Assembly (NCBI GenBank): GCA_041496705.1
Contig: JBGQFD010000001.1
Span: forward strand, 39,127-103,126
Source: Gammaproteobacteria bacterium
Lineage (GTDB): Bacteria; Pseudomonadota; Gammaproteobacteria; Burkholderiales; SG8-39
Direction of reading: 5' to 3'
DNA length: 64,000 bases
Positions 21,211 through 58,097 of the stretch are shown here, one piece after another. The translations under genes were made by a program, and so were the position numbers. Numbering within the stretch: position 1 is the stretch's first letter; every line of letters starts with the position of its first letter. The notes beneath the pieces are model-generated. The model saw only the letters and a program-made list of their open reading frames with translations, had not been told where the DNA came from and made no database searches.

Positions 21211-22545
21211 ATGCCGGACCCGACCAACAGAACCTTTATCTATAGCGTGCTGTTTCTCGACATTGTCGAGTATTCACAGTGCGTTGTCCCCAAACAGATC
21301 CGGCTCAAGGAGCGTTTCAACGCGGTTCTGACCGAGGCGATCGCCGGGGTGCCGGCGGACGATCGCATCATCCTCGATACTGGCGACGGGGCGGCAGTCT
21401 GTTTCCTGGGGGACCACGAAGACGCCATGTTCGTTGGCCTGGCCATGCGCGACGCGATCGCCTGCGAGGATCAGACCGGGGGCCGTGAGTTGGACATTCG
21501 CATCGGCATCAACCTCGGGCCTGTGAGGCTCGTCAAGGACATCAACGGCAACCCCAACATCATCGGCGACGGCATCAACGTGGCCCAGCGCGTCATGAGT
21601 TTCGCCGTGAAGGGCCAGATCCTGGTGCATCGCGATTACTACAACCTCATGGTGCGCATGTCCGAGGATTACGCCCAGCTGTTCCACTACGAAGGGGCGA
21701 TGACAGACAAGCACGTTCGCGAGCACGATGTTTATTCCATCATCAACGCCGCGCCCAGCACCCTCCGCCGGACCGCGCCCTTGCCTGTGCCCAGGCCGGT
21801 GATACGCCTGCCACGCCTCAGGCTTCCCAGCATCCACCTGTCCGACCTGCGGGTTCTCAGCGCACGCCTTCGGCCGATCGCTTCCAGGCTGGCGGTGAAC
21901 AGCAAGCTCCTTGTCGCCGCGCCGCTGGCGTTCATCCTGATCGTCAGTTCCGGCGTGATTGCGCGCAGCCACCGGAACTCCCCTGGAGAAGAAAAGAGCG
22001 GCGCACCCGTGTCGTCCGGCACGCCCAGGGCGGAGCAATCCCCCCTGAAGGTCGCAACGGCCGGAGCCGATCAGATCCAGCCGGACCAGGGGAGAACTGC
22101 CCCGGTGGAAAATCCGGCCACCCCTCCCAAGTCGGAGAATCCGACCGCTCCGGCCAAGTCGCAGCGGCCCATCGCCAACGCCAGGGCCCGGGATGCAGGT
22201 TCGACACGGGATGCCTTCCCGGCTGGCCGGAGGGCACCTGTGCAGACCGCCAGGGTCAAGGATGTCGCCGAAATGCTGGCCCTGCCCAAGGAGGCCGAAA
22301 CTCCTGTCGCGCCGCGTGGGCCCACCGCGGACACGGGGATCAACGTCGTGATCGTCGCGTTTCCCTGGGCCGAGGTCTACGTAGATGGGAACCGGCTGGG
22401 GGTCAGTCCGCCGCTCCGCTCGATCCCGCTCAAGCCGGGCAAGCACAAGGTAGAACTGCGCAATTCTTCTTTTCCCGCCCACGTCGAGACCGTCGAGGTC
22501 AAGAGCGGCGCTGAGATCAGCGTAAAGCACCGGTTCCGCCGCTGA
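21211..22545 (+). CDS. class III nucleotidyl cyclase-homology-domain protein with TM helix, Pro-rich linker and PEGA-like C-terminal domain
   Basis: 444 aa with CHD-like motifs VLFLDIVEYS, ILDTGDGAAVCF and IGDGINVAQRV, TM helix LLVAAPLAFILIVSSGVIA, and the C-terminal FPWAEVYVDGNRLGVSPP...KPGKHKVEL. Confidence 0.75.
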   Translation: MPDPTNRTFIYSVLFLDIVEYSQCVVPKQIRLKERFNAVLTEAIAGVPADDRIILDTGDGAAVCFLGDHEDAMFVGLAMRDAIACEDQTGGRELDIRIGINLGPVRLVKDINGNPNIIGDGINVAQRVMSFAVKGQILVHRDYYNLMVRMSEDYAQLFHYEGAMTDKHVREHDVYSIINAAPSTLRRTAPLPVPRPVIRLPRLRLPSIHLSDLRVLSARLRPIASRLAVNSKLLVAAPLAFILIVSSGVIARSHRNSPGEEKSGAPVSSGTPRAEQSPLKVATAGADQIQPDQGRTAPVENPATPPKSENPTAPAKSQRPIANARARDAGSTRDAFPAGRRAPVQTARVKDVAEMLALPKEAETPVAPRGPTADTGINVVIVAFPWAEVYVDGNRLGVSPPLRSIPLKPGKHKVELRNSSFPAHVETVEVKSGAEISVKHRFRR

Positions 22546-22551
22546 GGGACG

Positions 22552-22953
22552 ATGCCACGCTTCCGCTATCACGCGCTGTTGTTCGGATGCCTGGTGCTGA
22601 CCGGTTGCGCGTCGTTCAGGAACTTCAACGAGGACCTGGTCGGGATGTTCGCGGCGAAGGGTCAGAGGGAACTCGAAGTCGCCATCAAAGCCTACGAAGA
22701 CGGGGAGTACGCCTACTCGGCAAGGCTCCTGCAGGCAAGCCTGGATTCGGGCCTGCGCGGGGCGGCCAACCAGGTGCGAGCACACAAGTACCTCGCGTTT
22801 CTTCACTGCGCGGCCAGCCGCATACAACAGTGCCGCGACGAGTTCAGGAAGGCACTCGACATCGACCCTTCCTTCGATCTCCGGGACGACGAAGTCGGGC
22901 ACCCCGTGTGGGGTCCGGTTTTTCGCAGCCTGAGAACGACCTCCAGGAAATAA
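22552..22953 (+). CDS. small lipoprotein with TPR-like helical repeat
   Basis: 133 aa with lipobox LVLTGC. Only 6-nt gaps separate it from both neighbouring genes. Confidence 0.65.
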   Translation: MPRFRYHALLFGCLVLTGCASFRNFNEDLVGMFAAKGQRELEVAIKAYEDGEYAYSARLLQASLDSGLRGAANQVRAHKYLAFLHCAASRIQQCRDEFRKALDIDPSFDLRDDEVGHPVWGPVFRSLRTTSRK

Positions 22954-22959
22954 CCGGCC

Positions 22960-24150
22960 ATGACCGAACCGTGGCTGCTCGGCCGCTATGAAGTCGTTGC
23001 CGAACTCGGCAAAGGCGCCATGGGCGTCGTCTATCGGGCGAACGACCCGATGCTCAACCGCACGGTGGCCATCAAGACCATCAACATGGACGAGGCCGAG
23101 AACGAGGGTATGGCCGAGTACGAGGCGCGCTTCTACACCGAGGCCAAGGCGGCGGGCGGCCTGAATCACCCGAACATCATCATCATCTATGACATCGGCA
23201 AGAGCAGCCACCTAGTGTACATGGCGATGGAGTACATCGAGGGACGCGAGCTGCGCGAATTGCTCACCGAAGGGCAGCCGCTGCCCGTCGTACAGGGAAT
23301 CGACATCGCGGCGCAGATCGGGGAGGGATTGGCGTACGCCCACCAGCACCAGGTCGTGCATCGGGACATCAAACCTGCCAACATCCTCATCACCGGCGAA
23401 GGCCGCGCCAAGATCGCCGATTTCGGCATCGCGCGCATGCGCTCCAGCGAGACGCGTACGCAGACGGGCATCATTCTCGGCTCACCCAAGTACATCTCTC
23501 CCGAGCAGGTGGTCGGCAAGCGCGCCGACCATCGCTCCGATATCTTTTCCCTGGGCGTGATCCTCTACCAGTGCCTGACCGGCATGACCCCCTTCAACGG
23601 CGAAGGTCTGACCGCGCTCATGTACCAGATCACCAACTACGAGCCGCCGCCACCCAGTTCGACCAATCCCCAGGTACCGGTGATGCTCGACTACATCATC
23701 GCCAAGGTCCTCGCCAAGGCGCCGGAGGCGCGCTACCAGAGTGCGGCCGACCTGGCGAACGACCTGCGCGAGTGCAGATTGCAGATGGAAGGTGGCACGG
23801 CGGCCAGCCTATCGGCGACGGCGCCGATCCCCATCATGCCGGCCCTGGCGGCAGCCGCGCAGAAGCCTTCGGCGCTCCCGGCGCCCGATGCCACGGAGGA
23901 TCCTGCGGCGCTGCCACCTCCCACCAAGGGCATATCGCGCGCTTTCGACTCGCACGAAGCCACCTCGCGCCTGATGCGCCAGATCAGCGCCGACGGCACC
24001 GAGGAATTCGTGGTGTCGCCGTTTTCAACCAGCGCGCTGCGGTCTGGCAGGCGGTCCACGGAACATCCCTGGGGACCGCGCGAGAACGCCATCTTCGCTG
24101 CTACCGTAATCGCCGCGATGTTCATCGCTACCGCCATCGTCCTGCTGTGA
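22960..24150 (+). CDS. Hanks-type serine/threonine protein kinase, C-terminally tail-anchored
   Basis: 396 aa with GKGAMGVVY, VAIK, HRDIKPANIL, DFGIA and SPEQ. A single TM helix sits at the extreme C-terminus (IFAATVIAAMFIATAIVLL). Confidence 0.9.
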   Translation: MTEPWLLGRYEVVAELGKGAMGVVYRANDPMLNRTVAIKTINMDEAENEGMAEYEARFYTEAKAAGGLNHPNIIIIYDIGKSSHLVYMAMEYIEGRELRELLTEGQPLPVVQGIDIAAQIGEGLAYAHQHQVVHRDIKPANILITGEGRAKIADFGIARMRSSETRTQTGIILGSPKYISPEQVVGKRADHRSDIFSLGVILYQCLTGMTPFNGEGLTALMYQITNYEPPPPSSTNPQVPVMLDYIIAKVLAKAPEARYQSAADLANDLRECRLQMEGGTAASLSATAPIPIMPALAAAAQKPSALPAPDATEDPAALPPPTKGISRAFDSHEATSRLMRQISADGTEEFVVSPFSTSALRSGRRSTEHPWGPRENAIFAATVIAAMFIATAIVLL

Positions 24151-24211: not shown

Positions 24212-26299
24212 ATGTCTCGCCGGCTGTTCGTCACCACCGCCCTCCCTTACGCGAACGGCGCGTTTCACATCGGCCATATCATGGAGTACATCCAGGCCGA
24301 CATCTGGGTGCGGTTTCAGCGCATGCAGGGCCATGAAGTGCATTTCATCGGCGCCGACGACGCGCACGGCGCGCCCATCATGCTCGCGGCGGAGAAGGCC
24401 GGAAAATCGCCTGAGCAATTCATCGACGAAATCGCGAAGGGACGCAAGCAATACCTCGACGGCTTTCACATCGAATTCGACAACTGGCACTCGACTCATT
24501 CGAAAGAAAATACCGAGCTATCGCAAGACATATACCGCAAGCTCGTCAAGGCGGGGCTCGTCTACAAAGAAGCGATAGCGCAGTTCTTCGATCCAGTGAA
24601 AAGCATGTTCCTCGCCGACCGTTACATCAAGGGCGAATGCCCAAACTGCGGCGCGAAGGATCAGTACGGGGATGCGTGCGAGAACTGCAGCACCGTGTAT
24701 TCACCCACGCAGCTCAAGAACCCGTACTCGACCCTCTCCGGTGCGAAGCCAGAGCTCAAGTCGTCTGAGCACTACTTCTTCAGACTTTCCGATCCGAAGT
24801 GCACCGAGTTCCTGAAGAAATGGATCGCGGACGCAGGACGGCTCCAGCCGCAGGTCGCGAACAAGGCAAGAGAATGGCTCGAAGGCAAGGGCGAGAAGAC
24901 GCTCGCCGACTGGGACATCTCGCGCGACCCGCCGTATTTCGGCATCCGCATCCCCGACATCAAGGAAGAGAAATACCTCTACGTCTGGCTCGACGCGCCG
25001 ATCGGTTATCTCGCGAGCCTGAAGAACTACTGCTCGAAGAAGAAGCTCGACTTCGAAAAGCTCCTCGCCGACCCGAAAACCGAGCAGATTCACTTCATCG
25101 GAAAAGACATCATCTACTTCCATGCCCTGTTCTGGCCGGCGATGCTGAAATTCGCCGGCTACAAAATCCCGGACCACGTCTACGTGCACGGCTTCATCAC
25201 CGTGTCGGGCGACAAGATGTCGAAGAGCCGCGGAACAGGGATCGATCCTCTGCGATATCTAGAGCTTAGGATGAATCCGGAGTGGCTGCGCTACTACTTG
25301 GCGGCAAAGTTGAATGCAAACGTCGAGGACGTTGACTTCAACCCCGACGACTTCATAGCGCGAGTCAACAGCGATCTGGTGGGCAAGTATGTGAATATCG
25401 CGAGCCGTGCAGCAAAACTCCTCAGTGAGTATTTCCAAGGCCGCATTGATCCAATCAGGGGCCCCGCTCACTCACCTGCCTATTTGCTCGAGCACGCACG
25501 AGCTTCCGCCGATATGACCAAGGGCTACTACGAACGCAGAGAATACAGCCTCGCTCTTCGGGACGCGATGCACCTTGCAGATGAAGTAAACGAGTATTTC
25601 GATTCCAGGAAGCCCTGGGAATTGGCGAAGAAAGTCGCCTTGGAATCAGGGCAACATTTCAAAGAAGAACTCCACGAAGTATGTTCGGTCGCGCTAATTT
25701 GCTTCCGACGCTTGACGATCCAGTTGTCTCCTGTTTTGCCAGTCTTGAGTGAGACGGTGGCCAGAGAGCTTTTCGGAATGGATCGACCATTTACGTGGGC
25801 TGATCTCGAAGTAATACCCGAAAGAATCAATCCTTACCATCACCTAGTGACCCGTGTGGAAGAAAAGCAGCTCGATCAACTCTTCGACGTCCAGTCCGTG
25901 CCGCAGCCGGCGGCACCCCAGCGGCACGCCGAAAAGCAGCAACACGCAGCCAAGGAGCTATCCGTGGGCGACGGGACCATTTCAATCGACGACTTCAACA
26001 AAGTGGACCTGCGCATCGCGAAGATCGTCAAAGCCGAGCAAGTCGAAGGGGCGGACAAGCTCCTGAGGCTGACCCTCGACCTCGGCGGTGGAACGCGCAC
26101 GGTGTTCGCCGGGATAAAATCCGCCTACGACCCGGCGAAGCTCGAGGGCCGGCTCACTGTGATGGTCGTGAACCTCGCGCCGCGCAAGATGAAGTTCGGC
26201 GTTTCGGAGGGCATGGTGCTTGCCGCGAGCGGCGACGACCCGGGCCTTTACCTGCTCGCGCCGGACAACGGCGCCCGGCCGGGCATGAAGGTCAAATAG
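24212..26299 (+). CDS. metG: methionine--tRNA ligase
   Basis: ATG at codon 5 of ORF 24200..26299. Motifs: [11 protein letters not shown] (HIGH), Zn knuckle CPNCGA...CENC, KMSKS, and a C-terminal EMAP/Trbp111-like domain. Confidence 0.97.
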
Positions 26300-26301
26300 G
26301 A

Positions 26302-28323
26302 ATGGACGTGGCGCCGCTTTCAGGTTCGCTGCTCGTCGCGGTTGCGTGGCTCGCGATTGCGGCGCTGGGGCTGGTACCCGCCGGCAACGCGTTCTTCGCC
26401 AGGCGGCTCGCGTTTCCGCTCGGGGCGCTCGCCGGTGTCGCGCTCGCGGCCTTCGGCCTACAGGCGGTGTGGCTGCCGGCGCAGTCCTTGACGCTGCCGC
26501 TCGGGCTGCCCGACCTGCCTTTCCATCTGCGCATCGACGCGCTCGCAGGATTCTTCCTGATGCTGCTCGGCTCGGTGTCGGCGGGCATCTCCGTGTACTC
26601 CGCGGGCTATTTCCGCGAAGAGTCCTCGGGGCGCCTCGCGCTCATCAGCCTTCAGTACCACGTGTTTCTTGCCAGCATGGCCTTCGTGCTGCTCGCCGAC
26701 GACGCCTATATGTTCATGGTGGCCTGGGAAACGATGGCGCTGTCCTCGTATTTTCTGGTCATCACCGACCACCGGCAGCCGGCGATACGCAGCGCCGGTT
26801 TCCTCTATCTGCTGATCGCGCATCTGGGAGCGATCGCGATCCTCTTGTGCTTCGGCGTGCTGCACGGCGGACGCGGCGATTACACGTTCGCCGCGCTGCG
26901 CGCCGCCCAGCTGCAGCCGGCGTGGGCGAGCGTGGCCTTCCTGCTCGCCTTCTTCGGCTTCGGCGCCAAGGCGGGGATGATCCCGCTTCACGCATGGCTG
27001 CCCGAGGCGCACCCGGCTGCGCCTTCCCCCGTCTCGGCACTGATGAGCGGCATCATGCTCAAGACCGCCATCTACGGCATGGTGCGGGTGATCTTCGACC
27101 TGATCGGAAACGTGCGCTGGGAATGGGGCATGGTGGTGCTCGCGGTCGGTGCCGGCACGACGCTCTTCGGCGTGCTCTACGCCCTCATGCAGCACGATCT
27201 GAAACGCCTGCTCGCCTATCACTCGGTCGAGAACATCGGGATCATCCTGCTCGGCCTCGGTATGTCGATGGTGTTCATCGGCTTCGGCCATCCGGCGGCA
27301 GGTGCGCTGGGCCTGATCGCCGGGCTCTACCACACCCTCAACCACGCCGTGTTCAAGGGACTCCTCTTCCTCGGCGCGGGCTCGATCCTGCACTCGACGG
27401 GCCTGCGCAACCTGAACGACATGGGCGGCCTGATCCACAGCATGCCGAGGACCGCGTTCTACTTCCTCATCGGCGCGCTCGCGATCTCCGCGCTGCCGCC
27501 CTTGAACGGATTCGTATCCGAGTGGCTGACTTTCCAGACTGCCCTGCAAGCACCCCTCCTTCTCCAGAACAGCATCGTGCGCAGCCTGCTGCCGCTTTTC
27601 GCGGCGACTCTGGCCCTCGCCGGCGCGCTCACCGCGATGTGCTTCGTCAAGGTCTACGGCATCGCCTTTCTCGGCCGGCCGCGCGAGCCCGCGCATCCTT
27701 CGCCTCTGCCCCACGCGGGGGACGCGGGCCTCATGGAACGCTTTGGCATGGCCTGGCTTGCGGCCGGCTGCTTCGTGCTCGGGCTATTCCCGAGCTCGTT
27801 TCTATTGATCCTGAACCGAGTCGGCGTTTCGCTGACCGGCCAGGGCTTGTCCGAGCAGGCGCTTGCCGGTTCGGGCTGGCTGTGGCTCGTGCCCACCGCG
27901 CCGGAGCAGGCCAGCTACTCGCCCGTCATCTTTCTGGTGGTGATTGTCGCCGTGACGCTGCTTGCGTTCCTGCTGGTGCGCCGCTTCTACCACGGCCGCA
28001 TGCGCTTCGCCGATCCCTGGGACTGCGGCTACCCCGAGCAGACCCCGCGCATGCAGGACACGGCGGACGCTTTCGGCCAGCCGATCCGCCACGTCTTTGG
28101 CCCGATCTACCGCATGGACCGCAGGCTCCCCGGTCCCGACGACGCCGCGCCGAGATACGTGCTCAAAGTCGAAGACCGCCATTGGTATTGGCTCTACCTG
28201 CCCGTGGCGCGTGCGGCCGAATTCGTCTCGTCGAAGATCGCCCTGCTGCAGCAAGGCCGGATCAGCATTTACCTGCTCTACAGCTTCATCACCCTGATCG
28301 CGCTGCTGGTGTTCGTGAGATGA
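26302..28323 (+). CDS. HyfB-like antiporter-type membrane subunit (NuoL/M/N family)
   Basis: 673 aa, polytopic, same length class as E. coli HyfB. Motifs WETMALSSYFLV and LPEAHPAAPSPVSALMSG. The start lies 2 nt after the metG stop. Confidence 0.85.
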   Translation: MDVAPLSGSLLVAVAWLAIAALGLVPAGNAFFARRLAFPLGALAGVALAAFGLQAVWLPAQSLTLPLGLPDLPFHLRIDALAGFFLMLLGSVSAGISVYSAGYFREESSGRLALISLQYHVFLASMAFVLLADDAYMFMVAWETMALSSYFLVITDHRQPAIRSAGFLYLLIAHLGAIAILLCFGVLHGGRGDYTFAALRAAQLQPAWASVAFLLAFFGFGAKAGMIPLHAWLPEAHPAAPSPVSALMSGIMLKTAIYGMVRVIFDLIGNVRWEWGMVVLAVGAGTTLFGVLYALMQHDLKRLLAYHSVENIGIILLGLGMSMVFIGFGHPAAGALGLIAGLYHTLNHAVFKGLLFLGAGSILHSTGLRNLNDMGGLIHSMPRTAFYFLIGALAISALPPLNGFVSEWLTFQTALQAPLLLQNSIVRSLLPLFAATLALAGALTAMCFVKVYGIAFLGRPREPAHPSPLPHAGDAGLMERFGMAWLAAGCFVLGLFPSSFLLILNRVGVSLTGQGLSEQALAGSGWLWLVPTAPEQASYSPVIFLVVIVAVTLLAFLLVRRFYHGRMRFADPWDCGYPEQTPRMQDTADAFGQPIRHVFGPIYRMDRRLPGPDDAAPRYVLKVEDRHWYWLYLPVARAAEFVSSKIALLQQGRISIYLLYSFITLIALLVFVR

Positions 28324-28333
28324 GCTGCGCAAG

Positions 28334-29284
28334 ATGAACTACGGGGCTGCAAGCGCGTTCCAGATCCTGCAGTCGGTGTTCGTGGTGCTCGCCGCGCCGC
28401 TGCTCATGGGCTGGGTCAATCAGTGCCGCGCCTGGCTGCAGAACCGATCGGCGCCGAGCCTGCTGCTGCCGTACTGGACGCTGGCGAAGCTGTTCCACAA
28501 GGACGCCGTGTTCGCACGCAACGCCTCGCCGATTTTTCGATGGACGCCCTACATTCTGTTCGGCTGCATGTGGCTCGCCGCGGGCATCGTGCCGGTACTG
28601 GCGACCGGCCTGCCCTTCGCGCCCGCCGCGGACATCATCGCGCTCGTCGGAGTGTTCGCGCTCGCGCGAGTGTTCTCCGCGCTCGCCGCCATGGACATCG
28701 GCACCTCGTTCGGCGGACTGGGCGCCCGGCGCGAAATGCTGATCGGTTTTCTCGCCGAGCCGGCGATGCTGATGACGCTGTTCACCGCGGCCTTCATTTC
28801 CGGCTCCACCCAGCTCACTACCATCGTGGACACGCTCGGACACCGCGAGTTCGCGCTCCACCCGAGCCTCGCCTTCGCGGCGGTCGCCTTCCTCATGGTG
28901 CTGCTCGCCGAGAACGCGCGCATCCCGATTGACAATCCGACTACTCACCTCGAGCTCACCATGGTGCACGAGGCGCTGATTCTCGAGTACTCGGCGCGGC
29001 ATCTTGCGCTGATCGAATGGGCGGTCGCGATCAAGCTCTTCGCCTACATCACCATCGGCATTGCGCTCTTCGTCCCCTGGGGCATCGCCGAGGCCGGCGA
29101 CTGGATGGCGCTGCCGCTGGCGGTCGCGGCGCTCCTGATCAAGCTCGCCCTGGCCGGCGCCGGGCTGGCACTGATCGAAGCAGTGCTCGCCAAGCTGCGG
29201 CTCTTCCTCGCCCCCGAGTTCCTGTCCACCGCGTTCCTGCTGGCGGTGCTGGGCATGCTCACGCACTTTCTGGTTCAAGGCTGA
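28334..29284 (+). CDS. HyfC/HycD-like (NuoH-family) membrane subunit
   Basis: 316 aa, polytopic, with FDIPTAE-equivalent region RIPIDNPTTHLELTMVHEALILEYS. Confidence 0.85.
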   Translation: MNYGAASAFQILQSVFVVLAAPLLMGWVNQCRAWLQNRSAPSLLLPYWTLAKLFHKDAVFARNASPIFRWTPYILFGCMWLAAGIVPVLATGLPFAPAADIIALVGVFALARVFSALAAMDIGTSFGGLGARREMLIGFLAEPAMLMTLFTAAFISGSTQLTTIVDTLGHREFALHPSLAFAAVAFLMVLLAENARIPIDNPTTHLELTMVHEALILEYSARHLALIEWAVAIKLFAYITIGIALFVPWGIAEAGDWMALPLAVAALLIKLALAGAGLALIEAVLAKLRLFLAPEFLSTAFLLAVLGMLTHFLVQG

Positions 29285-29289
29285 AAGAG

Positions 29290-29946
29290 ATGCCGCTCCT
29301 CGCCCAGCTCGTCAACGTTCTCGCGGCATTTCTGCTGCTGCTCGCGTTCGCCATGCTTTCCCAGCGCCGCGTCCTCACTCTGATCAAGCTCTTCGCCTGG
29401 CAGGGCGCGGCGCTCGCGTTGTCGACCGGAATCGTCGCCTGGTCGACCGGTCAGACGCACCTCTACTGGTCGGCGCTGCTGACGGTGCTGCTCAAGGTGA
29501 TCCTCATCCCCTGGGTCCTGCACCGACTGATCGACCGACTGTACGTGCGCTGGGACATCGAGACCCTGATCAACATTCCGACCACGATGCTGATCGGCAT
29601 CGGGCTGGTGATCTTCGCCTTCGCTCTTGCCGCCCCGATCTCGCAGATGGCGAGCACACTCACGCGCTCCACCCTGGGGATCGCGATGGCGAGCATTCTG
29701 CTCTCCTTCCTCATGATGATCGTGCGCAGAAAGGCGGTGCCGCAGGTGATCGGCTTTCTCGCGATGGAAAACGGCCTGTTCTTCGCCGCTACCAGCGCGA
29801 CCTACGGAATGCCGCTTGTGGTGGAGCTCGGCGTGGCGCTCGACGTGCTGGTGGGCACCTTCATCTTCGGCATCTTCTTCTTCCATATCCGCGAGCAGTT
29901 CGACTCCCTCGACATCCGGCATATGGAAAAGCTGAAGGAAGACTGA
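29290..29946 (+). CDS. HyfE-like small membrane subunit
   Basis: 218 aa starting at the internal Met of ORF 29017..29946. About six TM helices. Position and size match HyfE. Confidence 0.75.
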   Translation: MPLLAQLVNVLAAFLLLLAFAMLSQRRVLTLIKLFAWQGAALALSTGIVAWSTGQTHLYWSALLTVLLKVILIPWVLHRLIDRLYVRWDIETLINIPTTMLIGIGLVIFAFALAAPISQMASTLTRSTLGIAMASILLSFLMMIVRRKAVPQVIGFLAMENGLFFAATSATYGMPLVVELGVALDVLVGTFIFGIFFFHIREQFDSLDIRHMEKLKED

Positions 29947-29947
29947 G

Positions 29948-31396
29948 ATGGAAATCGCGCTTGTCCTCGGCGTCCCGCTACTCGGCGGGCTGCTACTCGC
30001 GCTCGTCGGCCACAAGCGCTGGGCGCCGGAGCTGAATGCTTTAATGAGCCTCATCGCCCTTGTCGCCGCGGCAGCGCTGACCCGTCGCGTCATCACCGAC
30101 GGCCCGATGACGGCGCTGCAGGAGCAGTTCTTCGTCGATCCGTTCAACGTGTTCCTGGTGGCGCTGACGGCCTTCGTCGCCTTCACCACCGCGCTGTTCT
30201 CCCGGCCCTACATGCGCATCGAGGAGCACCACGGGCGCCTGAACGCGGCACGCTTGCGCCTCTACCACAGCATGTATCAGTTGTTTTCCTTCACCATGGT
30301 GTTGTGCCTGCTATCGAACAATGTCGGCATCCTGTGGGTGGCACTGGAGGGCGCGACGCTCTCGACCGTGCTGCTGGTGAGCCTGTACCGCACGCCAGCG
30401 AGCCTCGAGGCGGCGTGGAAGTATTTCATTCTCTGCTCGGTCGGCATCGCGCAGGCATTGTTCGGCGTGATTTTGCTCTATTTCGCCGCGGAAAAAGTTC
30501 TCGGCCCGGGAGGGACTTCACTCCTGTGGACGCACCTGTACGCAGTGCGCGAACAGCTCGAACCGACGGTGCTGTCGCTCGCGTTCGTGTTCCTGCTTGT
30601 CGGCTTTGGCACCAAAGTGGGCCTGGTGCCGTTGCACAACTGGCTGCCCGACGCGCACGCCGAAGGCCCGACCCCGGTATCGGCGGTGCTCTCGGGGCTG
30701 CTCCTCAACGTTGCGCTATACGCCGTGGTGCGCAGCAAGGTCCTGGTGGACGGCGCGCTCGGGCGCAATTTCTCCGGCGGACTGATGATGGGCTTCGGCC
30801 TGCTCTCGGTCGTCGTTGCGGCGTTCTTCCTCTCCCGGCAGCGCGACATCAAACGCATGTTCGCCTATTCGTCGGTCGAGCACATGGGCATCATGACTTT
30901 CGCCTTCGGCATGGGCGGACCGGTGGCGGCGTTCGCAGGACTCCTGCACATGACGGTGCACTCGCTCACCAAGAGCGCGATCTTCTTCACCGTCGGCCAC
31001 GCCTCGCAGAAGACCGGCACGCAGAACATGGCGGACATCCGCGGGCTCATCGAGCAGAGCCCCGCGATCGGTTGGGGCCTGGTGCTCGGCAGCCTCGCCA
31101 TCCTCGGCATGCCGCCCTTCGGCGTGTTCACGAGCGAGTTCATGGTGCTCACCACCGCGATGCACGAGCACCCCTGGGCGACGCCTTTCCTGCTGGTGGC
31201 GCTCGGCGTGGCGTTCGCCGCGATTTTCGGCAAGGTGCAGCCGATGGTATTCGGCGAAACCAATGCGCGCCGGCTGCCGCACGCGCCGGCGCTCATCCCG
31301 GTTTTCGTCCACCTGGGGATCGTATTGATGCTCGGACTCTACATTCCGCCCTATCTCGTCGGCTGGTATCGCCAGGCGGCGGCGCTGATCGGGTGA
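29948..31396 (+). CDS. HyfF-like antiporter-type membrane subunit (NuoM/N family)
   Basis: 482 aa with LHNWLPDAHAEGPTPVSAVLSG and YSSVEHMG. Confidence 0.85.
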   Translation: MEIALVLGVPLLGGLLLALVGHKRWAPELNALMSLIALVAAAALTRRVITDGPMTALQEQFFVDPFNVFLVALTAFVAFTTALFSRPYMRIEEHHGRLNAARLRLYHSMYQLFSFTMVLCLLSNNVGILWVALEGATLSTVLLVSLYRTPASLEAAWKYFILCSVGIAQALFGVILLYFAAEKVLGPGGTSLLWTHLYAVREQLEPTVLSLAFVFLLVGFGTKVGLVPLHNWLPDAHAEGPTPVSAVLSGLLLNVALYAVVRSKVLVDGALGRNFSGGLMMGFGLLSVVVAAFFLSRQRDIKRMFAYSSVEHMGIMTFAFGMGGPVAAFAGLLHMTVHSLTKSAIFFTVGHASQKTGTQNMADIRGLIEQSPAIGWGLVLGSLAILGMPPFGVFTSEFMVLTTAMHEHPWATPFLLVALGVAFAAIFGKVQPMVFGETNARRLPHAPALIPVFVHLGIVLMLGLYIPPYLVGWYRQAAALIG

Positions 31397-32952
31397 TCGT
31401 GAACGAGACATTCAAAGAGCTGGGATTGAACGCCGCAGCGCTTCCTGGGGCGATGCCGGTGTTCTGCGCCTCGATCCCGGCCGGCGAGTTGCGCGGCATC
31501 TGCGAGCAGGCGCGCGCGCGCAAGGCGCGCCTCGTGGCGCTGTGGGGCAGCGACGAGACGCAGCGCCATGCGGGTTTCGCGCTGCACTTCGCGTTGGCCT
31601 TCCCCGCGGGTCTCCTCTGGCTCAGCGTGCCGCTATCGCGAGAGGACCCGCGCTATCCCGGCATCGCCGACATCTATCCGAGCGCGAACCGCATGCAGCG
31701 CGCCACCGCCGACCTGCTCGGTATCCGTCCGGATGAGGGCGCCGATCCACGCAAGTGGCTGCGCCACGGCGCCTGGCCCGAGGACACCTTTCCGCTGCGC
31801 AAGAGCGTCGGTGCGGGCGCCCGCTTCCCCCAGGCGCCGGACCGCTATCCATTTGTCTCCGTCGAAGGCGAAGGCGTGCACGAGATCCCGGTCGGCCCGG
31901 TCCATGCGGGCACGATCGAGCCCGGGCATTTTCGCTTTTCCATCGTCGGCGAGAAAATCCTGCGGCTGGAGGAGCGGCTCGGCTACAAGCACAAGGGCAT
32001 CGAGAAGCTCTTCGAGTCGATGACGCTCGAAGAGGGCGCGAAGCTCTCGGGCAGGGTGAGCGGCGATTCTACGGTCGCCTATGCCTGGGCCTACGCCATG
32101 GCGGTCGAAGGGGCCACGGGAACCGCGCCGCCGAGCCGGGCGCTCGCGCTGCGCGGCGTCTTCCTCGAGCTCGAGCGCATCGCCAACCACCTCGGCGACC
32201 TCGGTTACCTCGGCAACGACGTCGCGCTGTCCTTCGGCTTTTTTCAGTTCTGGCGGCTGAAGGAAGATCTGCTGCGGACGAACGCGCGCCTGTTCGGCCA
32301 CCGCTACCTGATGGACGCCGTCGTTCCCGGCGGCGTCGCGAAGGACCTGCCGCGCCCCGAGGCCGAATTCCTCACCGGCCACCTGGACAAGATCGAGCGC
32401 GAGGTCGTGACGCTCAAGGCAATCTACGACGAGCACGCGGGCGCGCAGGACCGCTTCATCATGACAGGACAGGTGCCCCCGGAACTCGCCGAGCGCATGG
32501 GCCTCACCGGGATCGCCGGCCGCGCGAGCGGGATGACGCGCGATCTGCGCAGCGATCATCCGATTCCGCCCTACCAGCAGATCGACCCCCGCATCGCTTC
32601 GCACACGCGCGGGGACGTCGCGGCGCGCGTATCGGTGCGCTTCGACGAGGTCTTCGAATCGATGCGCCTGGTACGCGCGCTCGTGCAGCAGCTGCCGCCC
32701 GGCGCGATCCGCACGGCGGTCGCGGCGGCCGAAGCGGGCGGGCGCGGCCTCGGCTGGGTCGAGGGCTGGCGCGGCGAAGTGCTGATCGCGCTCGAGACCG
32801 CCGGGGCAAACCGCATCCACCGCCTGCATCCGCACGATCCTTCCTGGCAGAACTGGCCGCTCCTCGAGCACGCGGTGCACGGCAATATCGTTCCAGACTT
32901 TCCGCTCATCAACAAGTCGTTCAATCTGAGTTACAGCGGAGCAGACCTCTGA
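31393..32952 (+). CDS. HyfG/HycE-like NuoC-NuoD fusion subunit lacking the [NiFe] cysteine ligands
   Basis: 519 aa from a GTG that overlaps the hyfF-like stop (GTGA). Motifs GPVHAGTIEPGHFRF, LGYKHKGIEK and ERIANHLGDLG. The ligand motifs read RVSGDSTVAY and NLSYSGADL-stop in place of RxCGxCxxxH and DPCxxCxxR/H. Confidence 0.85.
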   Translation: MIVNETFKELGLNAAALPGAMPVFCASIPAGELRGICEQARARKARLVALWGSDETQRHAGFALHFALAFPAGLLWLSVPLSREDPRYPGIADIYPSANRMQRATADLLGIRPDEGADPRKWLRHGAWPEDTFPLRKSVGAGARFPQAPDRYPFVSVEGEGVHEIPVGPVHAGTIEPGHFRFSIVGEKILRLEERLGYKHKGIEKLFESMTLEEGAKLSGRVSGDSTVAYAWAYAMAVEGATGTAPPSRALALRGVFLELERIANHLGDLGYLGNDVALSFGFFQFWRLKEDLLRTNARLFGHRYLMDAVVPGGVAKDLPRPEAEFLTGHLDKIEREVVTLKAIYDEHAGAQDRFIMTGQVPPELAERMGLTGIAGRASGMTRDLRSDHPIPPYQQIDPRIASHTRGDVAARVSVRFDEVFESMRLVRALVQQLPPGAIRTAVAAAEAGGRGLGWVEGWRGEVLIALETAGANRIHRLHPHDPSWQNWPLLEHAVHGNIVPDFPLINKSFNLSYSGADL

Positions 32953-33470
32953 TGTATCAACTCCTGAAACAGATCGCAAAGACCGGCATCGTCACCGAGC
33001 CCGCGCCGCTCCCGGATGCGGCACTGCGCGAAACCGAGCAGCGGCTGGGCGAGGTGATCCTGCGGCACTTCGGGCGCGCGCTGGCGATCCGCCACGTAGA
33101 CGCCGGATCGTGCAACGGCTGCGAACTCGAGATCCATGCGATGAACAGCCCCTACTACAACCTCGAGCGGCTCGGCATCAAGTTCGTCGCCAGCCCGCGC
33201 CATGCCGACCTGCTGCTGGTGACCGGGCCGGTGTCGCGCCATATGGAGGTCGCGCTCAAGCGCACCTACGACGCCACACCCGATCCCAAGCTGGTCGTGG
33301 CGATCGGCGACTGTGGCTGCACGGGGGGAGTGTTTGGCGAGAGCTACGCGAGCTGCGGACGCGTGGCTAACGTGATCCCGGTGGACATCGCCGTGCCCGG
33401 CTGTCCGCCCGAACCGCTAGCGATCATGCGCGGCATCCTCACCGCGATCACCCCCGGAAAACGGCGCTAG
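32952..33470 (+). CDS. HyfI/HycG-like NuoB-family [4Fe-4S] subunit
   Basis: 172 aa, with the ATG overlapping the upstream TGA. Cluster cysteines are retained (GSCNGCELE, IGDCGCTGG, PGCPP). Confidence 0.85.
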   Translation: MYQLLKQIAKTGIVTEPAPLPDAALRETEQRLGEVILRHFGRALAIRHVDAGSCNGCELEIHAMNSPYYNLERLGIKFVASPRHADLLLVTGPVSRHMEVALKRTYDATPDPKLVVAIGDCGCTGGVFGESYASCGRVANVIPVDIAVPGCPPEPLAIMRGILTAITPGKRR

Positions 33471-33475
33471 CGTCG

Positions 33476-33913
33476 ATGGAACTCTCACTCGCCTTCATCG
33501 GCTGGTTCTTCACGCTGACCTCGGCCGGCGCCGTGCTCCTTTCAGTGATCCTCATCGCCACGCTGTTCAACGCCGGCGAGCTGTCGCGGCGTTACCTCAG
33601 CTACAGCTTCTGGAACGACCTGATGCTGGGTGCAATCTGGGTGCTCGGGCTCGCGGGGGGAATCGGCGTGATCCGCCTGCAGCCCTGGGGCCGCTATCTG
33701 CTGGAGCTTTTCTGCTGGGCGCTGATCGTGCTGATGCTGCTCTCGGCCGCGAGTCGCCTGTACGCGCTGCGCCGGTCCGGGCCGGGCGACCCGCCGGTCA
33801 ACTGGCTCGGTGCGATCTCCGGGGTGACGCTGATAGTCGTCCCGCTCCTCGCCATCTGCGCCGCTACGATCGTGACGCTGCGCAGCCCCGAGGCACTGAA
33901 AGCATTCTCCTAG
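33476..33913 (+). CDS. four-TM membrane protein of unknown function, last gene of the hyf-like operon
   Basis: 145 aa, starting 5 nt after the NuoB-like gene ends. Four hydrophobic helices. I recognise no family. Confidence 0.55.
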   Translation: MELSLAFIGWFFTLTSAGAVLLSVILIATLFNAGELSRRYLSYSFWNDLMLGAIWVLGLAGGIGVIRLQPWGRYLLELFCWALIVLMLLSAASRLYALRRSGPGDPPVNWLGAISGVTLIVVPLLAICAATIVTLRSPEALKAFS

Positions 33914-34105: not shown

Positions 34106-34375
34106 ATGGCCAAACAGCTGAGAATTTCCGGCCACGTCCAAGGTGTGGGCTTCCGCTACTCGTTGATGGAGGAAGCCGAACGGCTGGGCGTCACCGGCTG
34201 GGTGAGGAACCGCCGCGACAGCACGGTGGAAGCCGTGGTGGATGGTACGCCCGATACGGTCGAGGCGATGCTCGCCTGGGCGCGCCGCGGGCCTCGCGGT
34301 GCGCGCGTGACCGACGTCGAAGTCACCGAAGTTCCGGGAAGCTTCGAGCGCTTCGAGATGCGTCCGACCGAATAG
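34106..34375 (+). CDS. acyP: acylphosphatase
   Basis: 89 aa with HVQGVGFRY and [12 protein letters not shown] signatures. Confidence 0.9.
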
Positions 34376-36184: not shown

Positions 36185-37255
36185 ATGGGCAGCAAATACA
36201 AAATTCTCATCATGGGCGCCTCGTACGGTTCGCTTCTCGCAACCAAGCTGGCGCTCGCCGGGCACGCGACGCATCTCATCTGCCTGCCGGCCGAAGCCGA
36301 GCTGATCAACAAGGAAGGCGCAATCGTTCGCATGCCGGTAAAGGGGCGCGAGGGGCTGGTCGAGATCAACTCCAGGAACCTGCCGGGCAAGATATCCGCC
36401 GGCGGCACCACGGGCGTCAATCCTTCCGATTACGATCTGGTGGCACTCGCCATGCAGGAACCGCAGTACCGTTCGCCGGGCGTGCGCGAGCTGCTCGCCG
36501 CGGTCGCCAAGTCCAGGGTGCCGTGCATGTCGATCATGAACATGCCGCCGCTGACGTATCTCAAGCGCATTCCGGGCGTCGACGTCGAGGCCTGCCGCAG
36601 CTGCTACACCGACGCCAGCGTCTGGGATACGTTCGACCCCAAGGTCATGACGCTGTGCAGCCCGGACCCGCAGGCGTTCCGCCCGCCGGAGGAAAAGGTG
36701 AACGTCCTGCAGGTGAGGCTGCCGACCAACTTCAAGTCGGCGCGCTTCGATTCGGAAGCGCACACGGCGATCCTGCGCCAGATCGAGTCGGACATCGAAG
36801 CCTCGCGCTTCGACACGGGTACTGGAAAGATCGAGTTGCCCGTCAAGCTCAAGGTCCACGACTCGGTGTTCGTGCCGCTCGCCAAGTGGGCGATGCTCGT
36901 CGCCGGAAACTACCGCTGCGTGCTGAAGGACAGCGTGCGCCCCATCAAAGACGCCGTGCACAGCGACCTCGAAGCCTCGCGCTCCGTCTACAACTGGGTG
37001 GTCAAGCTGTGCGTGAGGCTGGGAGCGAACGAGAAAGACCTGGTGCCGTTCGAGAAATACGCCAACGCGGCCTTGTCGCTGGGCAGCCCGTCCTCCGCGG
37101 CACGGGCGCTCGCCGCCGGCGCACCTAACATCGAGCGTGTCGACCGGCTGGTGAAGACTATAGCGGCACAGAAAGGCATGCACTCCGAAGTCCTCGATCA
37201 GACCGTTGCGCTGGTCGATGGCTGGCTGGAGAAAAACCGCAGAAAGGCCGCCTGA
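36185..37255 (+). CDS. ketopantoate-reductase-family-like NAD(P)-binding oxidoreductase, function unknown
   Basis: 356 aa starting at an internal Met with AGGAGG upstream. Rossmann N-terminus KILIMGASYGSLLATKLA. Overall ApbA/PanE-like architecture judged by eye. Confidence 0.6.
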   Translation: MGSKYKILIMGASYGSLLATKLALAGHATHLICLPAEAELINKEGAIVRMPVKGREGLVEINSRNLPGKISAGGTTGVNPSDYDLVALAMQEPQYRSPGVRELLAAVAKSRVPCMSIMNMPPLTYLKRIPGVDVEACRSCYTDASVWDTFDPKVMTLCSPDPQAFRPPEEKVNVLQVRLPTNFKSARFDSEAHTAILRQIESDIEASRFDTGTGKIELPVKLKVHDSVFVPLAKWAMLVAGNYRCVLKDSVRPIKDAVHSDLEASRSVYNWVVKLCVRLGANEKDLVPFEKYANAALSLGSPSSAARALAAGAPNIERVDRLVKTIAAQKGMHSEVLDQTVALVDGWLEKNRRKAA

Positions 37256-39794
37256 TTCAGGCGCTGATTCTCCTATCACTGCCGCGGTTGCCCGTGATAG
37301 CCTTTTCACGGAGAGGGACCGCGCAGTCGTGCTCGAAAGAATAGGCAAGTACGAGATCCGCCTGCAGATCGGACGCGGTGCGATGGGCATCGTGTACGAA
37401 GGTTTCGACCCGGCGATCGGCCGGCGCGTGGCGATCAAGACGCTGCGCACCGAAATGTTCGAGCCGAGCCAGCTCCCCAGCGTGCTTGCCCGCTTCAAGC
37501 GCGAAGCGCAGTCGGCGGGGCGCCTCTCGCATCCCCACATCGTCACCATCCACGATTACGGCGAAGAACAAGGCACGCCGTACATCGTGATGGAGTACAT
37601 CTCCGGCGACGAGCTGGGCCGCCAGCTCGAACGCGGCTCTCGGCTTAAGCCCGACCAAGTGGTGCGCATCATGACCGCGCTCCTCGCGGCGCTCGCGCAC
37701 GCGCACGAACACGGGGTCATTCACCGCGACCTCAAGCCCTCGAACATGTTCGTACTGAACGACGGCTCGCTCAAGGTCGTGGACTTCGGCATCGCGCGGG
37801 TCGAGGCCTCCGACCTCACCGACACCGGCACGACGCTCGGCACCCCCGCCTACATGTCTCCGGAGCAGTTCCTCGCACTTCCGGTGGATGCGCGCAGCGA
37901 CCTCTACTCGGCGGGCGTCATCCTCTACCAGCTCCTTACCGGCGACAAGCCGTTCACCGGCTCGATCACCGCCATCATGCAGAAGGTGCTGCACCAGCAG
38001 CCGATCGAGCCCTCGGTCCTGAACCCGACGCTCTCGAATGTCTGGGACGCCGTGGTGCTGCGGGCGATGGCGAAAAAGCCCGAGGCGCGCTACCAGAGCG
38101 CGCGGGAATTCCTCGAGGCGGTGAAGGCGGCACAGGCGGCGGAGCGCGGGGAACCGGTCGCCACCCCAGCGCACGCGGCCGCGCCGCAGGGCGGGCGCGA
38201 GGACGAACGTACGATCCGCGTGCGGCCGGGACCGGATCCCGAGGCGACATTGCCCTCGCTGCCGGCAGCGGAAGGCAGCCGGGCGGGCGAAGCACCGCGC
38301 TCGCGCAAGGGGCTCGCCATCGCCGCGGGGCTCATCGCCCTCCTCGGACTCGGCGCAGGGCTCGTCTATCTGCGCAACGACTCCGACCGCACGTCGATCG
38401 AGCGCGCGCGCCAGGCAGCGGAGCGCCGCGCCGCCGACGCGGAAGAGCGCGCGAGGAAGGAATCCGAGCGCGCGAACCAGGAAGCGCTAGCGCGGGCGAA
38501 GACCGAAGCGGCGCGCAGCGAAGACCAGCGACGCGAGGCCGAGGCGGCCAAGGCGCGTGCCCGCAAGGAGGCGGAACGGGCGAAGCAAGAGACCGACGCG
38601 AGGGCCAAAGCCGAGGCCGATCGCAGGGAAGAGGAGCTTCGCCGCGAGGCGGACGCGGCCAAGGCGCGCGCCGCGGAAATCGCGCGCAAGGAAGCAGAAG
38701 AAAAGACGAGGCTGGCGGCGCTGCGGGCGGACGAGGCAAAGCGCAAAGCCGCCTCCGCGGCACTGGCGAAAAAGGAGGCCGATGACAGAGCAAGGGATGC
38801 CGCAAGGAAGGCGGACGCGGCGAGAAAGGCCGAGGAAGCCCGCAAGGCGGAAAAAGCGCGCGCCGAGCAGGCCCTGCGCGACAAGTACAAGGCGGGAAGC
38901 GGACTCCGCGACTGCATCGACTGCCCGCAAATGGTGGTGATTCCCGCCGGCGAATTCACGATGGGTTCGCCGGCGTCGGAGGCCGGGCGCTTCGACCATG
39001 AGAGCCCGCAGCACGCCGTGCGGATCGCACAGACGTTTGCGCTGGGGCAGAGCGAAGTCACGTTTGCCCAGTTCGAACGATTCGTAACGGAGGCCGGATA
39101 CAAGACCGAGGCTGAGCGCGACGTCGGCAAGGCGGGATGCCTCGGGTTCAACTTTTCCGATCGAACGGCTACCAAGGACGACTGGCTGGCGGGAAGGAGC
39201 TGGCGCAACCCCGGATTCGAGCAGACCTCCGACCGCGACCCGGTGGTCTGCGTGAGTTGGAACGACGCGAAAGCGTACGTTCGCTGGCTATCGACAAAAA
39301 CCGGGAAGACCTATAGATTGCCGACCGAGGCGGAATGGGAGTATGCCGCGCGCGCCGGGACGAAAACCGCGCGCTACTGGGGCGACGATCCCAATCAAGC
39401 GTGCCTCTATGCGAACGTAGCCGATCAGAGCACCTACAGGACAGGGGTGGGGCCGAGCGCGAAGACCTGGTCGCGCTCGAGCGCGCGCAGGCACGAATGC
39501 AACGACGGCAGATACTTCACCGCACCGGTCGGCTCGTACCGGGCGAACGGCTTCGGGCTGTACGACGTGCTGGGGAACGCGTGGGAATGGACCGAGGATT
39601 GCTGGAACGCAAGCTATACGGGTGCTCCGGCCGACGGCACGGCCTGGCTGACCGGAGATTGTTCCCGACGCGTGCTCCGCGGCAATTCCTGGGTCCAGGA
39701 ACCGCGCTACGCACGCTCGGCGAACCGCGACCGGGGCCCTTCCGATTTGCGGCGCACCGGTAGCGGTTTCCGTGTTGCCAGAACGCTCGAATGA
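37206..39794 (+). CDS. Hanks-type Ser/Thr kinase - TM - charged coiled coil - FGE-sulfatase (SUMF1-like) domain fusion
   Basis: Kinase motifs GRGAMGIVY, VAIK, HRDLKPSNM, DFGIA and SPEQ. TM helix LAIAAGLIALLGLGAGLVYL. FGE-domain motifs include WEYAARAG, GNAWEWTEDCW and RGNSW. The true start may be the GTG at 37329 (VLERIGKYEI), which would remove the 50-nt overlap with the previous gene. Confidence 0.85.
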   Translation: MRWSMAGWRKTAERPPDSGADSPITAAVARDSLFTERDRAVVLERIGKYEIRLQIGRGAMGIVYEGFDPAIGRRVAIKTLRTEMFEPSQLPSVLARFKREAQSAGRLSHPHIVTIHDYGEEQGTPYIVMEYISGDELGRQLERGSRLKPDQVVRIMTALLAALAHAHEHGVIHRDLKPSNMFVLNDGSLKVVDFGIARVEASDLTDTGTTLGTPAYMSPEQFLALPVDARSDLYSAGVILYQLLTGDKPFTGSITAIMQKVLHQQPIEPSVLNPTLSNVWDAVVLRAMAKKPEARYQSAREFLEAVKAAQAAERGEPVATPAHAAAPQGGREDERTIRVRPGPDPEATLPSLPAAEGSRAGEAPRSRKGLAIAAGLIALLGLGAGLVYLRNDSDRTSIERARQAAERRAADAEERARKESERANQEALARAKTEAARSEDQRREAEAAKARARKEAERAKQETDARAKAEADRREEELRREADAAKARAAEIARKEAEEKTRLAALRADEAKRKAASAALAKKEADDRARDAARKADAARKAEEARKAEKARAEQALRDKYKAGSGLRDCIDCPQMVVIPAGEFTMGSPASEAGRFDHESPQHAVRIAQTFALGQSEVTFAQFERFVTEAGYKTEAERDVGKAGCLGFNFSDRTATKDDWLAGRSWRNPGFEQTSDRDPVVCVSWNDAKAYVRWLSTKTGKTYRLPTEAEWEYAARAGTKTARYWGDDPNQACLYANVADQSTYRTGVGPSAKTWSRSSARRHECNDGRYFTAPVGSYRANGFGLYDVLGNAWEWTEDCWNASYTGAPADGTAWLTGDCSRRVLRGNSWVQEPRYARSANRDRGPSDLRRTGSGFRVARTLE
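38390..38900 (+). repeat. low-complexity K/E/A/R-rich coding region (TolA-like charged helix)
   Basis: About 170 codons of AERRAADAEERARKESERANQEALARAKTEAA... with degenerate internal periodicity, inside the kinase-FGE gene. Confidence 0.7.
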
Positions 39795-58085: not shown

Positions 58086-58097
58086 GGACAGCCCCTG

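Follow-up and report, generated by a model that had tools for sequence, protein, structure and literature searches.

Group 4 hydrogenase-related complexes without the ligands of the Ni-Fe site form the Ehr class, which has no assigned function (PMC6349859, PMC10284858, PMC4758237), whose description is credited by the papers that cite them to Coppi 2005 and Marreiros 2013, and which is placed in the literature beside the group 4f hydrogenases (PMC10284858). Here we describe a six-gene cassette, hyfBCEFGI, and in particular its large-subunit gene hyfG, from a 64,000-nucleotide stretch of a betaproteobacterial genome (assembly GCA_041496705.1, contig JBGQFD010000001.1, positions 39,127 to 103,126 of the forward strand). 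This whole stretch is referred to as the window and all coordinates follow its numbering. The Ehr complex of Geobacter sulfurreducens (GSU0739-0745) is similar to the window complex in having large and small subunits without Ni-Fe ligands, as well as NuoL-like and HyfE-like membrane subunits (PMC6349859, PMC10284858, PMC8691401, PMC7894505), and its subunits reach a higher abundance on formate (PMC7894505). The name Ehr covers a loosely defined class, and membership of the window protein in the same subfamily as Geobacter EhrL is only putative.

The layout of the cassette matches that of hyqRBCEFGI, described as an 'endo-hydrogenase' in Azorhizobium caulinodans (Ng 2009, Sprecher 2012; PMC2650096, PMC3357923), which also shows six structural genes in the order B-C-E-F-G-I, a fused NuoC-NuoD and a NuoB-like subunit with four cysteines (PMC3357923). 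The 504-residue HyqG was reported in 2012 to have lost both CxxC motifs and to retain C258, C491 and C497 (PMC3357923), and hyq deletions altered both H2 uptake and H2 evolution (PMC2650096, PMC3357923). An earlier note on this DNA, made from its letters alone, had presented the family as one noticed in comparative genomics. That is correct, but the family is known beyond comparative genomics, since the loss of the HyqG CxxC motifs had been published and H2 phenotypes had been claimed genetically (PMC3357923).

Six-gene hyfBCEFGI clusters were also reported in aerobic Proteobacteria. Cupriavidus metallidurans CH34 (Rmet_4666-4671) and C. necator H16 (H16_A2196-2201) each carry one, for which a role in lithotrophy was judged unlikely (PMC2864759), and the catalytic subunit of the Acidithiobacillus ferrooxidans cluster was returned as a non-hydrogenase by HydDB (PMC7735108). 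Their likeness to the window cassette is based on the published gene order and on a Burkholderia cepacia-complex homologue, which is 55% identical and shows the same stand-alone cassette. Literature searches for data on H16_A2196-2201 or for Ehr biochemistry yielded genome, proteome and transcriptome mentions only, and neither biochemistry nor a structure of any Ehr/Hyq member was found in the literature. Furthermore, at pH 5 a seven-gene 'group 4f' cluster of Methylocystis showed a 16- to 23-fold induction, as formate dehydrogenases were induced too (bioRxiv 10.1101/2025.08.29.672306). We take this cluster to be cysteine-less as well, because its quoted motif ends in 'AARVS', which matches the R-V-S state described below; its assignment as a true 'group 4f [NiFe]-hydrogenase' may be an error of similarity-based classification. 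The window complex is a further member of this known and widespread family, in which the loss of cysteines has already been described.

The large subunit of the window and the motifs that define its state are the following:

31393..32952, + strand: HyfG/HyqG/EhrL-like large subunit, a NuoC-NuoD fusion of 519 amino acids with all four [NiFe] ligand positions substituted
31906..31938, + strand: beta1-beta2 loop motif AGTIEPGHFRF, with E176 as the hydrogenase-type Glu and I175 opposite Nqo4 His38
32053..32082, + strand: former N-terminal ligand motif, RVSGDSTVAY (residues 221-230) in place of RxCGxCxxxH
32923..32952, + strand: former C-terminal ligand motif, NLSYSGADL and the stop codon, in place of [DE]xCxxCxD[RH]

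The product of 31393-32952 had been read in the earlier note as a group 4 hydrogenase/NuoCD-type large subunit, and its translation, its Pfam domains (Complex1_30kDa and Complex1_49kDa, a NuoC-NuoD fusion) and its match to HycE all agree with that reading. Among all PDB sequences the top match is E. coli HycE (7z0s_E, E=1e-60), followed by T. thermophilus Nqo4 and Pyrococcus MbhL. Profile alignment to these three proteins showed all four ligands replaced: RVSGDSTVAY lies opposite HycE RVCGICGFAH and NLSYSGAD (511-518) opposite HycE DPCYSCTD, and neither the N-terminal nor the C-terminal CxxC pair of group 4 is present. Residues 511-519 are encoded by nucleotides 32923-32949 and the stop codon by 32950-32952. 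Both replaced motifs were thus found where they had been proposed by eye, and cysteine pairs, which were looked for at both places in the HMMER alignments, were not seen. The register is also secure because the alignment with the four-cysteine relative P0149 (38% identity, 3 gaps only) runs nearly gapless up to the C-terminus, where P0149 FELCYSCTDL-stop faces HyfG FNLSYSGADL-stop. A misregister of the motifs was ruled out by this alignment together with those to HycE, Nqo4 and MbhL.

HyfG has two cysteines in total, C25 and C37, and both are within the NuoC-like N-domain, therefore the NuoD-like domain is without any cysteine. By these alignments, HyfG cannot hold a cysteine-ligated Ni-Fe center, and the complex is almost certainly a cysteine-less Hyq/Ehr member and not a [NiFe] enzyme. 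The Ehr-type assignment made at first sight is supported by the loss of the ligands, by the retained cysteines of the small subunit and by the cysteine-less state of 75 of 103 representatives (see below). The absence of a C-terminal maturation peptide, proposed in the same note, was also found, with the stop codon directly after the motif. It has no diagnostic value, however, because the cysteine-bearing sister hydrogenases lack this extension too and stop right after CxDR.

Distribution and conservation were analyzed in a scan of one genome per species, which found a relative in at least 582 genomes, and the best 80 loci were examined. These 80 orthologues belong to Betaproteobacteria, are mostly metagenome-assembled and show 57-85% identity; they include Burkholderiales, Gallionella, Sulfuricella and Thiobacillus, and the nearest ones come from grassland-soil genomes. 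The order B-C-E-F-G-I is kept in 80 of 80 loci where the contig allows it to be seen, and the same six-gene order was found in Burkholderia diffusa, Falsiroseomonas stagni and Thermodesulfovibrio. All 80 orthologues also keep R[VI]SGD[ST], NLSY[SAT]GxDL-stop and AG[TI]IEPGHFRF. A search of 1.84 billion cluster representatives matched 6882 proteins at E<=0.001, and 103 near-full-length proteins from the best 150 matches, each from a separate 50%-identity cluster, were used to survey the motifs. Ligand cysteines were absent in 75 of them, all four were present in 16, and five had the first only. Across the 75 cysteine-less representatives, position 223 is Ser in 62 and Ala in 11, while G224 is found in 72, D225 in 66, S513 in 68, Y514 in 66, G516 in 71 and D518 in 73. 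E176 is present in 74 of these 75 and in 16 of the 16 four-cysteine proteins, and R460 in 72 of the 75. The strong conservation of the replacement residues makes the former Ni-Fe pocket look remodeled rather than merely lost.

A decaying, non-functional hydrogenase relic would also have lost its catalytic ligands. Against this, no reading frame is broken and the genes are translationally coupled, the ratio of nonsynonymous to synonymous substitution rates (dN/dS) is 0.17-0.44 in comparisons with six orthologues, the replacement motifs do not vary among the 80 species and are largely kept in the 75 distant clusters, and relatives occur in as many species genomes as stated above. The dN/dS values and the motif conservation effectively refute a pseudogene, which we hold to be extremely improbable; the whole cassette is under purifying selection, and the substitution of the ligands is, judged from these comparisons, a conserved state and not decay.

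The five relatives with the first cysteine only (P0125, P0127, P0128, P0247 and P0265; locus L091) show the patterns CSSG or CSAG; they could be intermediates in evolution, or else represent a third functional state.

The other five subunits of the cassette are encoded as follows:

26302..28323, + strand: HyfB-like antiporter-type membrane subunit of 673 amino acids (Pfam Proton_antipo_M; NCBIfam 'hydrogenase 4 subunit B', 885 bits, cut-off 667)
28334..29284, + strand: HyfC/HycD/NuoH-like membrane subunit of 316 amino acids (Pfam NADHdh; HycD 7z0s_D, E=3e-42)
29290..29946, + strand: HyfE-like small membrane subunit of 218 amino acids (NCBIfam 'hydrogenase 4 membrane subunit', E=5e-22, under the cut-off), kept in all related loci
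29948..31396, + strand: HyfF-like antiporter-type membrane subunit of 482 amino acids (NCBIfam 'hydrogenase 4 subunit F', 865 bits, cut-off 543)
32952..33470, + strand: HyfI/NuoB-like small subunit of 172 amino acids (Pfam Oxidored_q6), with four cysteines for one [4Fe-4S] cluster and no ferredoxin-like extension

NuoB-, NuoH- and HyfE-like subunits and two antiporter-like subunits are thus present in the order B-C-E-F-G-I of Ehr/Hyq operons. The junctions of the cassette are overlaps or spacers of 1-10 nucleotides; hyfF and hyfG overlap in GTGA, and at the hyfG/hyfI junction, TGATG, the stop and start codons share one base. The small subunit HyfI matches Pyrococcus MbhJ (3e-41) and, second best, E. 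coli HycG (5e-37), and its C54, C57, C121 and C151 are opposite their [4Fe-4S] ligands, the four cysteines of the proximal cluster in group 4 small subunits, as the earlier note had said of the Fe-S cysteines of this subunit. A CxxCxxCxxxC motif was not found in HyfI. In the membrane arm, HyfC retains the acidic residues of HycD (EP, ENARIPIDNP and HEALILEYS), and HyfF, aligned to MbsH, MbhH and NuoM, retains the Glu of transmembrane helix (TM) 5, the Lys of TM7 and the Glu of TM12. By these alignments, the charged residues that one would expect in an ion-translocating module are present in the membrane arm, and the locus encodes a six-subunit, complex-I-like membrane complex of the cysteine-less Hyq/Ehr lineage.

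Two solved systems were used for comparison. The formate hydrogenlyase (FHL) of E. coli (HycE/HycG/HycD, PDB 7Z0S), together with Hyf, is the best solved relative of the large subunit and of the NuoH-like subunit; a fold search with the AlphaFold2 model of HyfG recovered only HycE, as top match with a template modeling score of 0.82, and NuoCD. Of the parts of FHL, the Ni-Fe site, the C-terminal peptide that is cleaved off, the Fe-S relay subunits HycB and HycF and formate dehydrogenase H are all missing from the window cassette. Complex I (NuoB, NuoCD, NuoH, NuoL/M/N) shares module architecture and fold, but its small subunit shows a tandem CC where HyfI has the CxxC spacing of hydrogenases, and NuoA, E, F, G, I, J and K are absent from the operon, from the window by the Pfam scan described below and from the related loci.

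The closest described relatives of HyfG are, by sequence comparison, the alphaproteobacterial HyqG proteins. The representative P0133, from a Falsiroseomonas cluster, fits the published HyqG exactly: it has 504 residues, cysteines at 491 and 497, and ends in LCNKSFNCSYSGVDL. HyfG is 46% identical to it (E=5e-115), both share the R-x-SGD motif and the N-x-SYSGxDL C-terminus, and Falsiroseomonas carries the same cassette. The window differs from A. caulinodans Hyq in that C258, C491 and C497 of HyqG correspond to G274, I506 and L512 of HyfG, in that no hyqR-type regulator is adjacent to the cassette, which is directly preceded by metG instead, and in that the host is a betaproteobacterium and not a diazotrophic alphaproteobacterium. 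The window therefore falls outside a narrow alphaproteobacterial Hyq subfamily defined by these three cysteines and an adjacent hyqR.

This relationship bears on whether the complex is a genuine H2-metabolizing enzyme with a non-canonical, cysteine-free site, as claimed for Azorhizobium Hyq. The altered H2 recycling and evolution of the hyq deletion mutants (PMC2650096, PMC3357923), the identity and common motifs with a HyqG-type protein, and the retention of the hydrogenase-type Glu176 and Arg460 speak for it. On the other hand, the NuoD-like domain is cysteine-free throughout, the three cysteines conserved in HyqG are replaced, and no cysteine position is universal in the 75 cysteine-less representatives. 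No hyp, hycI, fdh or other hydrogenase gene was found in the 64 kb window by a Pfam scan of the operon genes and of all but a few of the open reading frames (ORFs) picked by a filter on GC content at third codon positions, with uncertain gene calls at 50-52 kb and 57-59 kb. The HydDB verdict on the Acidithiobacillus homologue (PMC7735108) points the same way, those who described Hyq considered a Ni-Fe site 'uncertain, if not unlikely' (PMC3357923), and the Hyq phenotypes are indirect, in vivo and in a nitrogenase background. We therefore consider an H2 enzyme very unlikely.

The cysteine-bearing sister group shows what accompanies the ligands where they are present. The four-cysteine relatives, whose hosts are anaerobes (Planctomycetota, Desulfotomaculum and Desulfitobacterium hafniense DCB-2), are presumably group 4f (Ehf) hydrogenases and share with the window an identical six-gene order, an equal length of the large subunit, collinear at 38% identity, and the lack of a C-terminal extension. 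They differ from the window lineage in having the four cysteines, V or A at 225, E at 511 and R at 519. Furthermore, four of the six sister operons with a visible small-subunit gene (L087, L088, L089 and L093) contain a 2x[4Fe-4S] ferredoxin-like module, which is part of HyfI as a fusion or else a separate product of 108-114 amino acids from a gene between G and I; the other two (L090 and L095) do not. The CxxCxxCxxxC motif was found in the relay-module region of none of about 85 cysteine-less loci (0/~85 vs 4/6, Fisher p=5.6e-6, with a small sister sample). This suggests that loss of the Ni-Fe ligands accompanies a minimal, one-cluster electron path. Since two cysteine-bearing operons also lack the module, its absence alone is no proof that redox function was lost.

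The same difference favors a redox-independent, Mrp-like cation/proton antiporter, in which the HyfG/HyfI arm would be a vestigial cap, the [4Fe-4S] cluster would be structural or regulatory only, and the proton-motive force would drive ion exchange through HyfB, E, F and C for pH or cation homeostasis. Such an antiporter would also agree with the lack of a conserved partner nearby, as no oxidoreductase, ferredoxin or hyp gene recurs among the clustered flanking ORFs of the 80 loci, with the position of the cassette packed right behind the housekeeping gene metG, with the presence of the family in aerobes such as Burkholderia, and with the acid induction of the probably homologous Methylocystis cluster (bioRxiv 10.1101/2025.08.29.672306). 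However, all four cluster cysteines of HyfI are strictly retained, the conservation of the pocket residues, Glu176 and Arg460 in very distant members exceeds the needs of a passive cap, and the absence of a relay is shared by the two sister operons mentioned above. An antiporter without redox chemistry is therefore a possible but rather unlikely explanation.

The reading that we favor, with a probability of roughly 45%, is that the complex is a minimal redox-linked ion translocator and not a hydrogenase. An electron would reach the lone HyfI cluster from a directly docking partner, the candidates being a formate-dehydrogenase module or a carrier of the ferredoxin or flavodoxin type. The remodeled polar pocket, formed by S223, D225, S226, S513 and G516 and by three retained residues, E176, Y514 and R460, would handle protonation or a small acceptor other than H2, and this event would be coupled via HyfC and HyfE to the movement of H+ (or Na+) in HyfF and HyfB, possibly in a reversible way. 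Because it stands directly behind metG, we read the cassette as a constitutive housekeeping device for bioenergetics or pH homeostasis and not as an induced catabolic enzyme. The points in favor of this reading are the conserved replacement motifs and low dN/dS, the retained cluster cysteines of HyfI and charged residues of HyfC and HyfF, the conserved gene order with its tight junctions, the higher abundance of Geobacter Ehr on formate (PMC7894505) and the induction of the Methylocystis cluster together with formate dehydrogenases.

Several results weigh against the redox-linked translocator. The cassette has no gene for a relay subunit, and none for an electron donor, acceptor or relay is present or conserved in its surroundings, therefore redox turnover is only inferred. 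A quinone acceptor is unsupported because the quinone-site residues Tyr87 and His38 of Nqo4, which complex I has, correspond to G224 and I175 in HyfG; a complex-I-like quinone site was rejected on this alignment. The antiporter Lys of TM8 is replaced by Asn in HyfF, aligned to MbsH, MbhH and NuoM. The AlphaFold2 model of HyfG has a predicted template modeling score of 0.80, but residues 151-204 and 491-519, exactly the pocket loops, have a predicted local distance difference test (pLDDT) below 50, so that the geometry of the pocket is not readable and no inference about it was drawn from the model. Finally, the Azorhizobium genetics ascribes both H2 uptake and H2 evolution to the Hyq family (PMC2650096, PMC3357923).

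We consider it improbable that the cysteine-less pocket beside the lone [4Fe-4S] cluster is a new kind of catalytic or ion-coupling site, with Ser223, Gly224, Asp225, Ser/Thr226, Ser513, Tyr514, Gly516, Glu176 and Arg460 as the residues concerned. One possibility for such a site would be metal-thiolate-free chemistry behind the Hyq H2 phenotypes, and another a proton or cation pump gated by redox state and independent of both quinone and H2.

Cysteine-less relatives of energy-converting hydrogenases are very common, with thousands of protein clusters besides the species genomes counted above. Their hosts are soil and groundwater Betaproteobacteria, Burkholderia, rhizobia and iron- and sulfur-oxidizers, to which the literature adds Cupriavidus, Methylocystis and Nitrospira, and many members still carry a "hydrogenase" annotation. 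Knowing their role would correct the inference of hydrogen metabolism from genomes and metagenomes, and would show how the coupling machinery of complex I and hydrogenases works with a minimal redox module. To this family the window adds a clade with a wholly cysteine-free catalytic domain, strong conservation of the replacement residues, and a cassette attached directly to a housekeeping gene. It does not settle the function, but points to tractable hosts (Burkholderia and Cupriavidus) and to D225, S513 and the HyfI cysteines as residues of interest.

The genes directly around the cassette are the following:

24212..26299, + strand: metG, methionyl-tRNA synthetase (Pfam tRNA-synt_1g and tRNA_bind), the upstream gene of the tightly packed unit
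33476..33913, + strand: predicted membrane protein of 145 amino acids, starting 5 nucleotides after hyfI, without Pfam or NCBIfam match
34106..34375, + strand: acylphosphatase, a stand-alone gene downstream of the cassette

The metG stop codon TAG is followed by GA and by the hyfB ATG (26297-26304), a spacing of 2 nucleotides. The 145-residue membrane protein is found in eight related loci only, those of the closest relatives, at a median of about 12 nucleotides downstream of hyfI, and may be a clade-specific seventh subunit. The acylphosphatase recurs near the cassette in 17 related loci and, like the 145-residue protein, is conserved next to it among close relatives only; HypF, a maturase of hydrogenases, has an N-terminal domain that resembles acylphosphatases. 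The only genes that recur in the flanks of the 80 loci are those for MetG, DnaE, acylphosphatase, a solute-binding protein, a SulP transporter, a Ser/Thr kinase and Mrp. Of about 60 related loci, 27 have a divergent pair of mrp (NUBPL-type) and metG next to the cassette; the pair either lies immediately upstream or, inverted, a few kb downstream. In eukaryotes, complex I receives Fe-S clusters from proteins of the Mrp/NUBPL type, and the linkage of the pair to the cassette could be functional or mere inherited synteny. The other genes of the window identified by Pfam are housekeeping genes (folE2, dxs, ispA, thyA, folA, mrp/NUBPL, metG, dnaE, purM and pcnB).

A SulP-STAS-Usp transporter is encoded just upstream of hyfB in 11 betaproteobacterial loci (for example L073, 2060-4624, and L049, 2871-4526), and a solute-binding protein downstream of the cassette in 16, one copy being fused to DsrE. 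A beta-carbonic anhydrase follows one cysteine-bearing operon (locus L093, 7247-7837). These neighbors hint at links with inorganic carbon or anions, inconsistently across loci.

Signaling genes are located on both sides of the window cassette (21211-24150 and 37206-39794): a cyclase-like/PEGA protein, a small lipoprotein-like ORF and a Ser/Thr kinase between mrp and metG, and a second Ser/Thr kinase, fused to an FGE-sulfatase domain, downstream. Two long ORFs on the - strand (50819-52150 and 56964-59291), without Pfam matches, coincide with the highest-GC stretches (0.71-0.73) and, with their Arg/Glu-rich translations, look like shadow ORFs.

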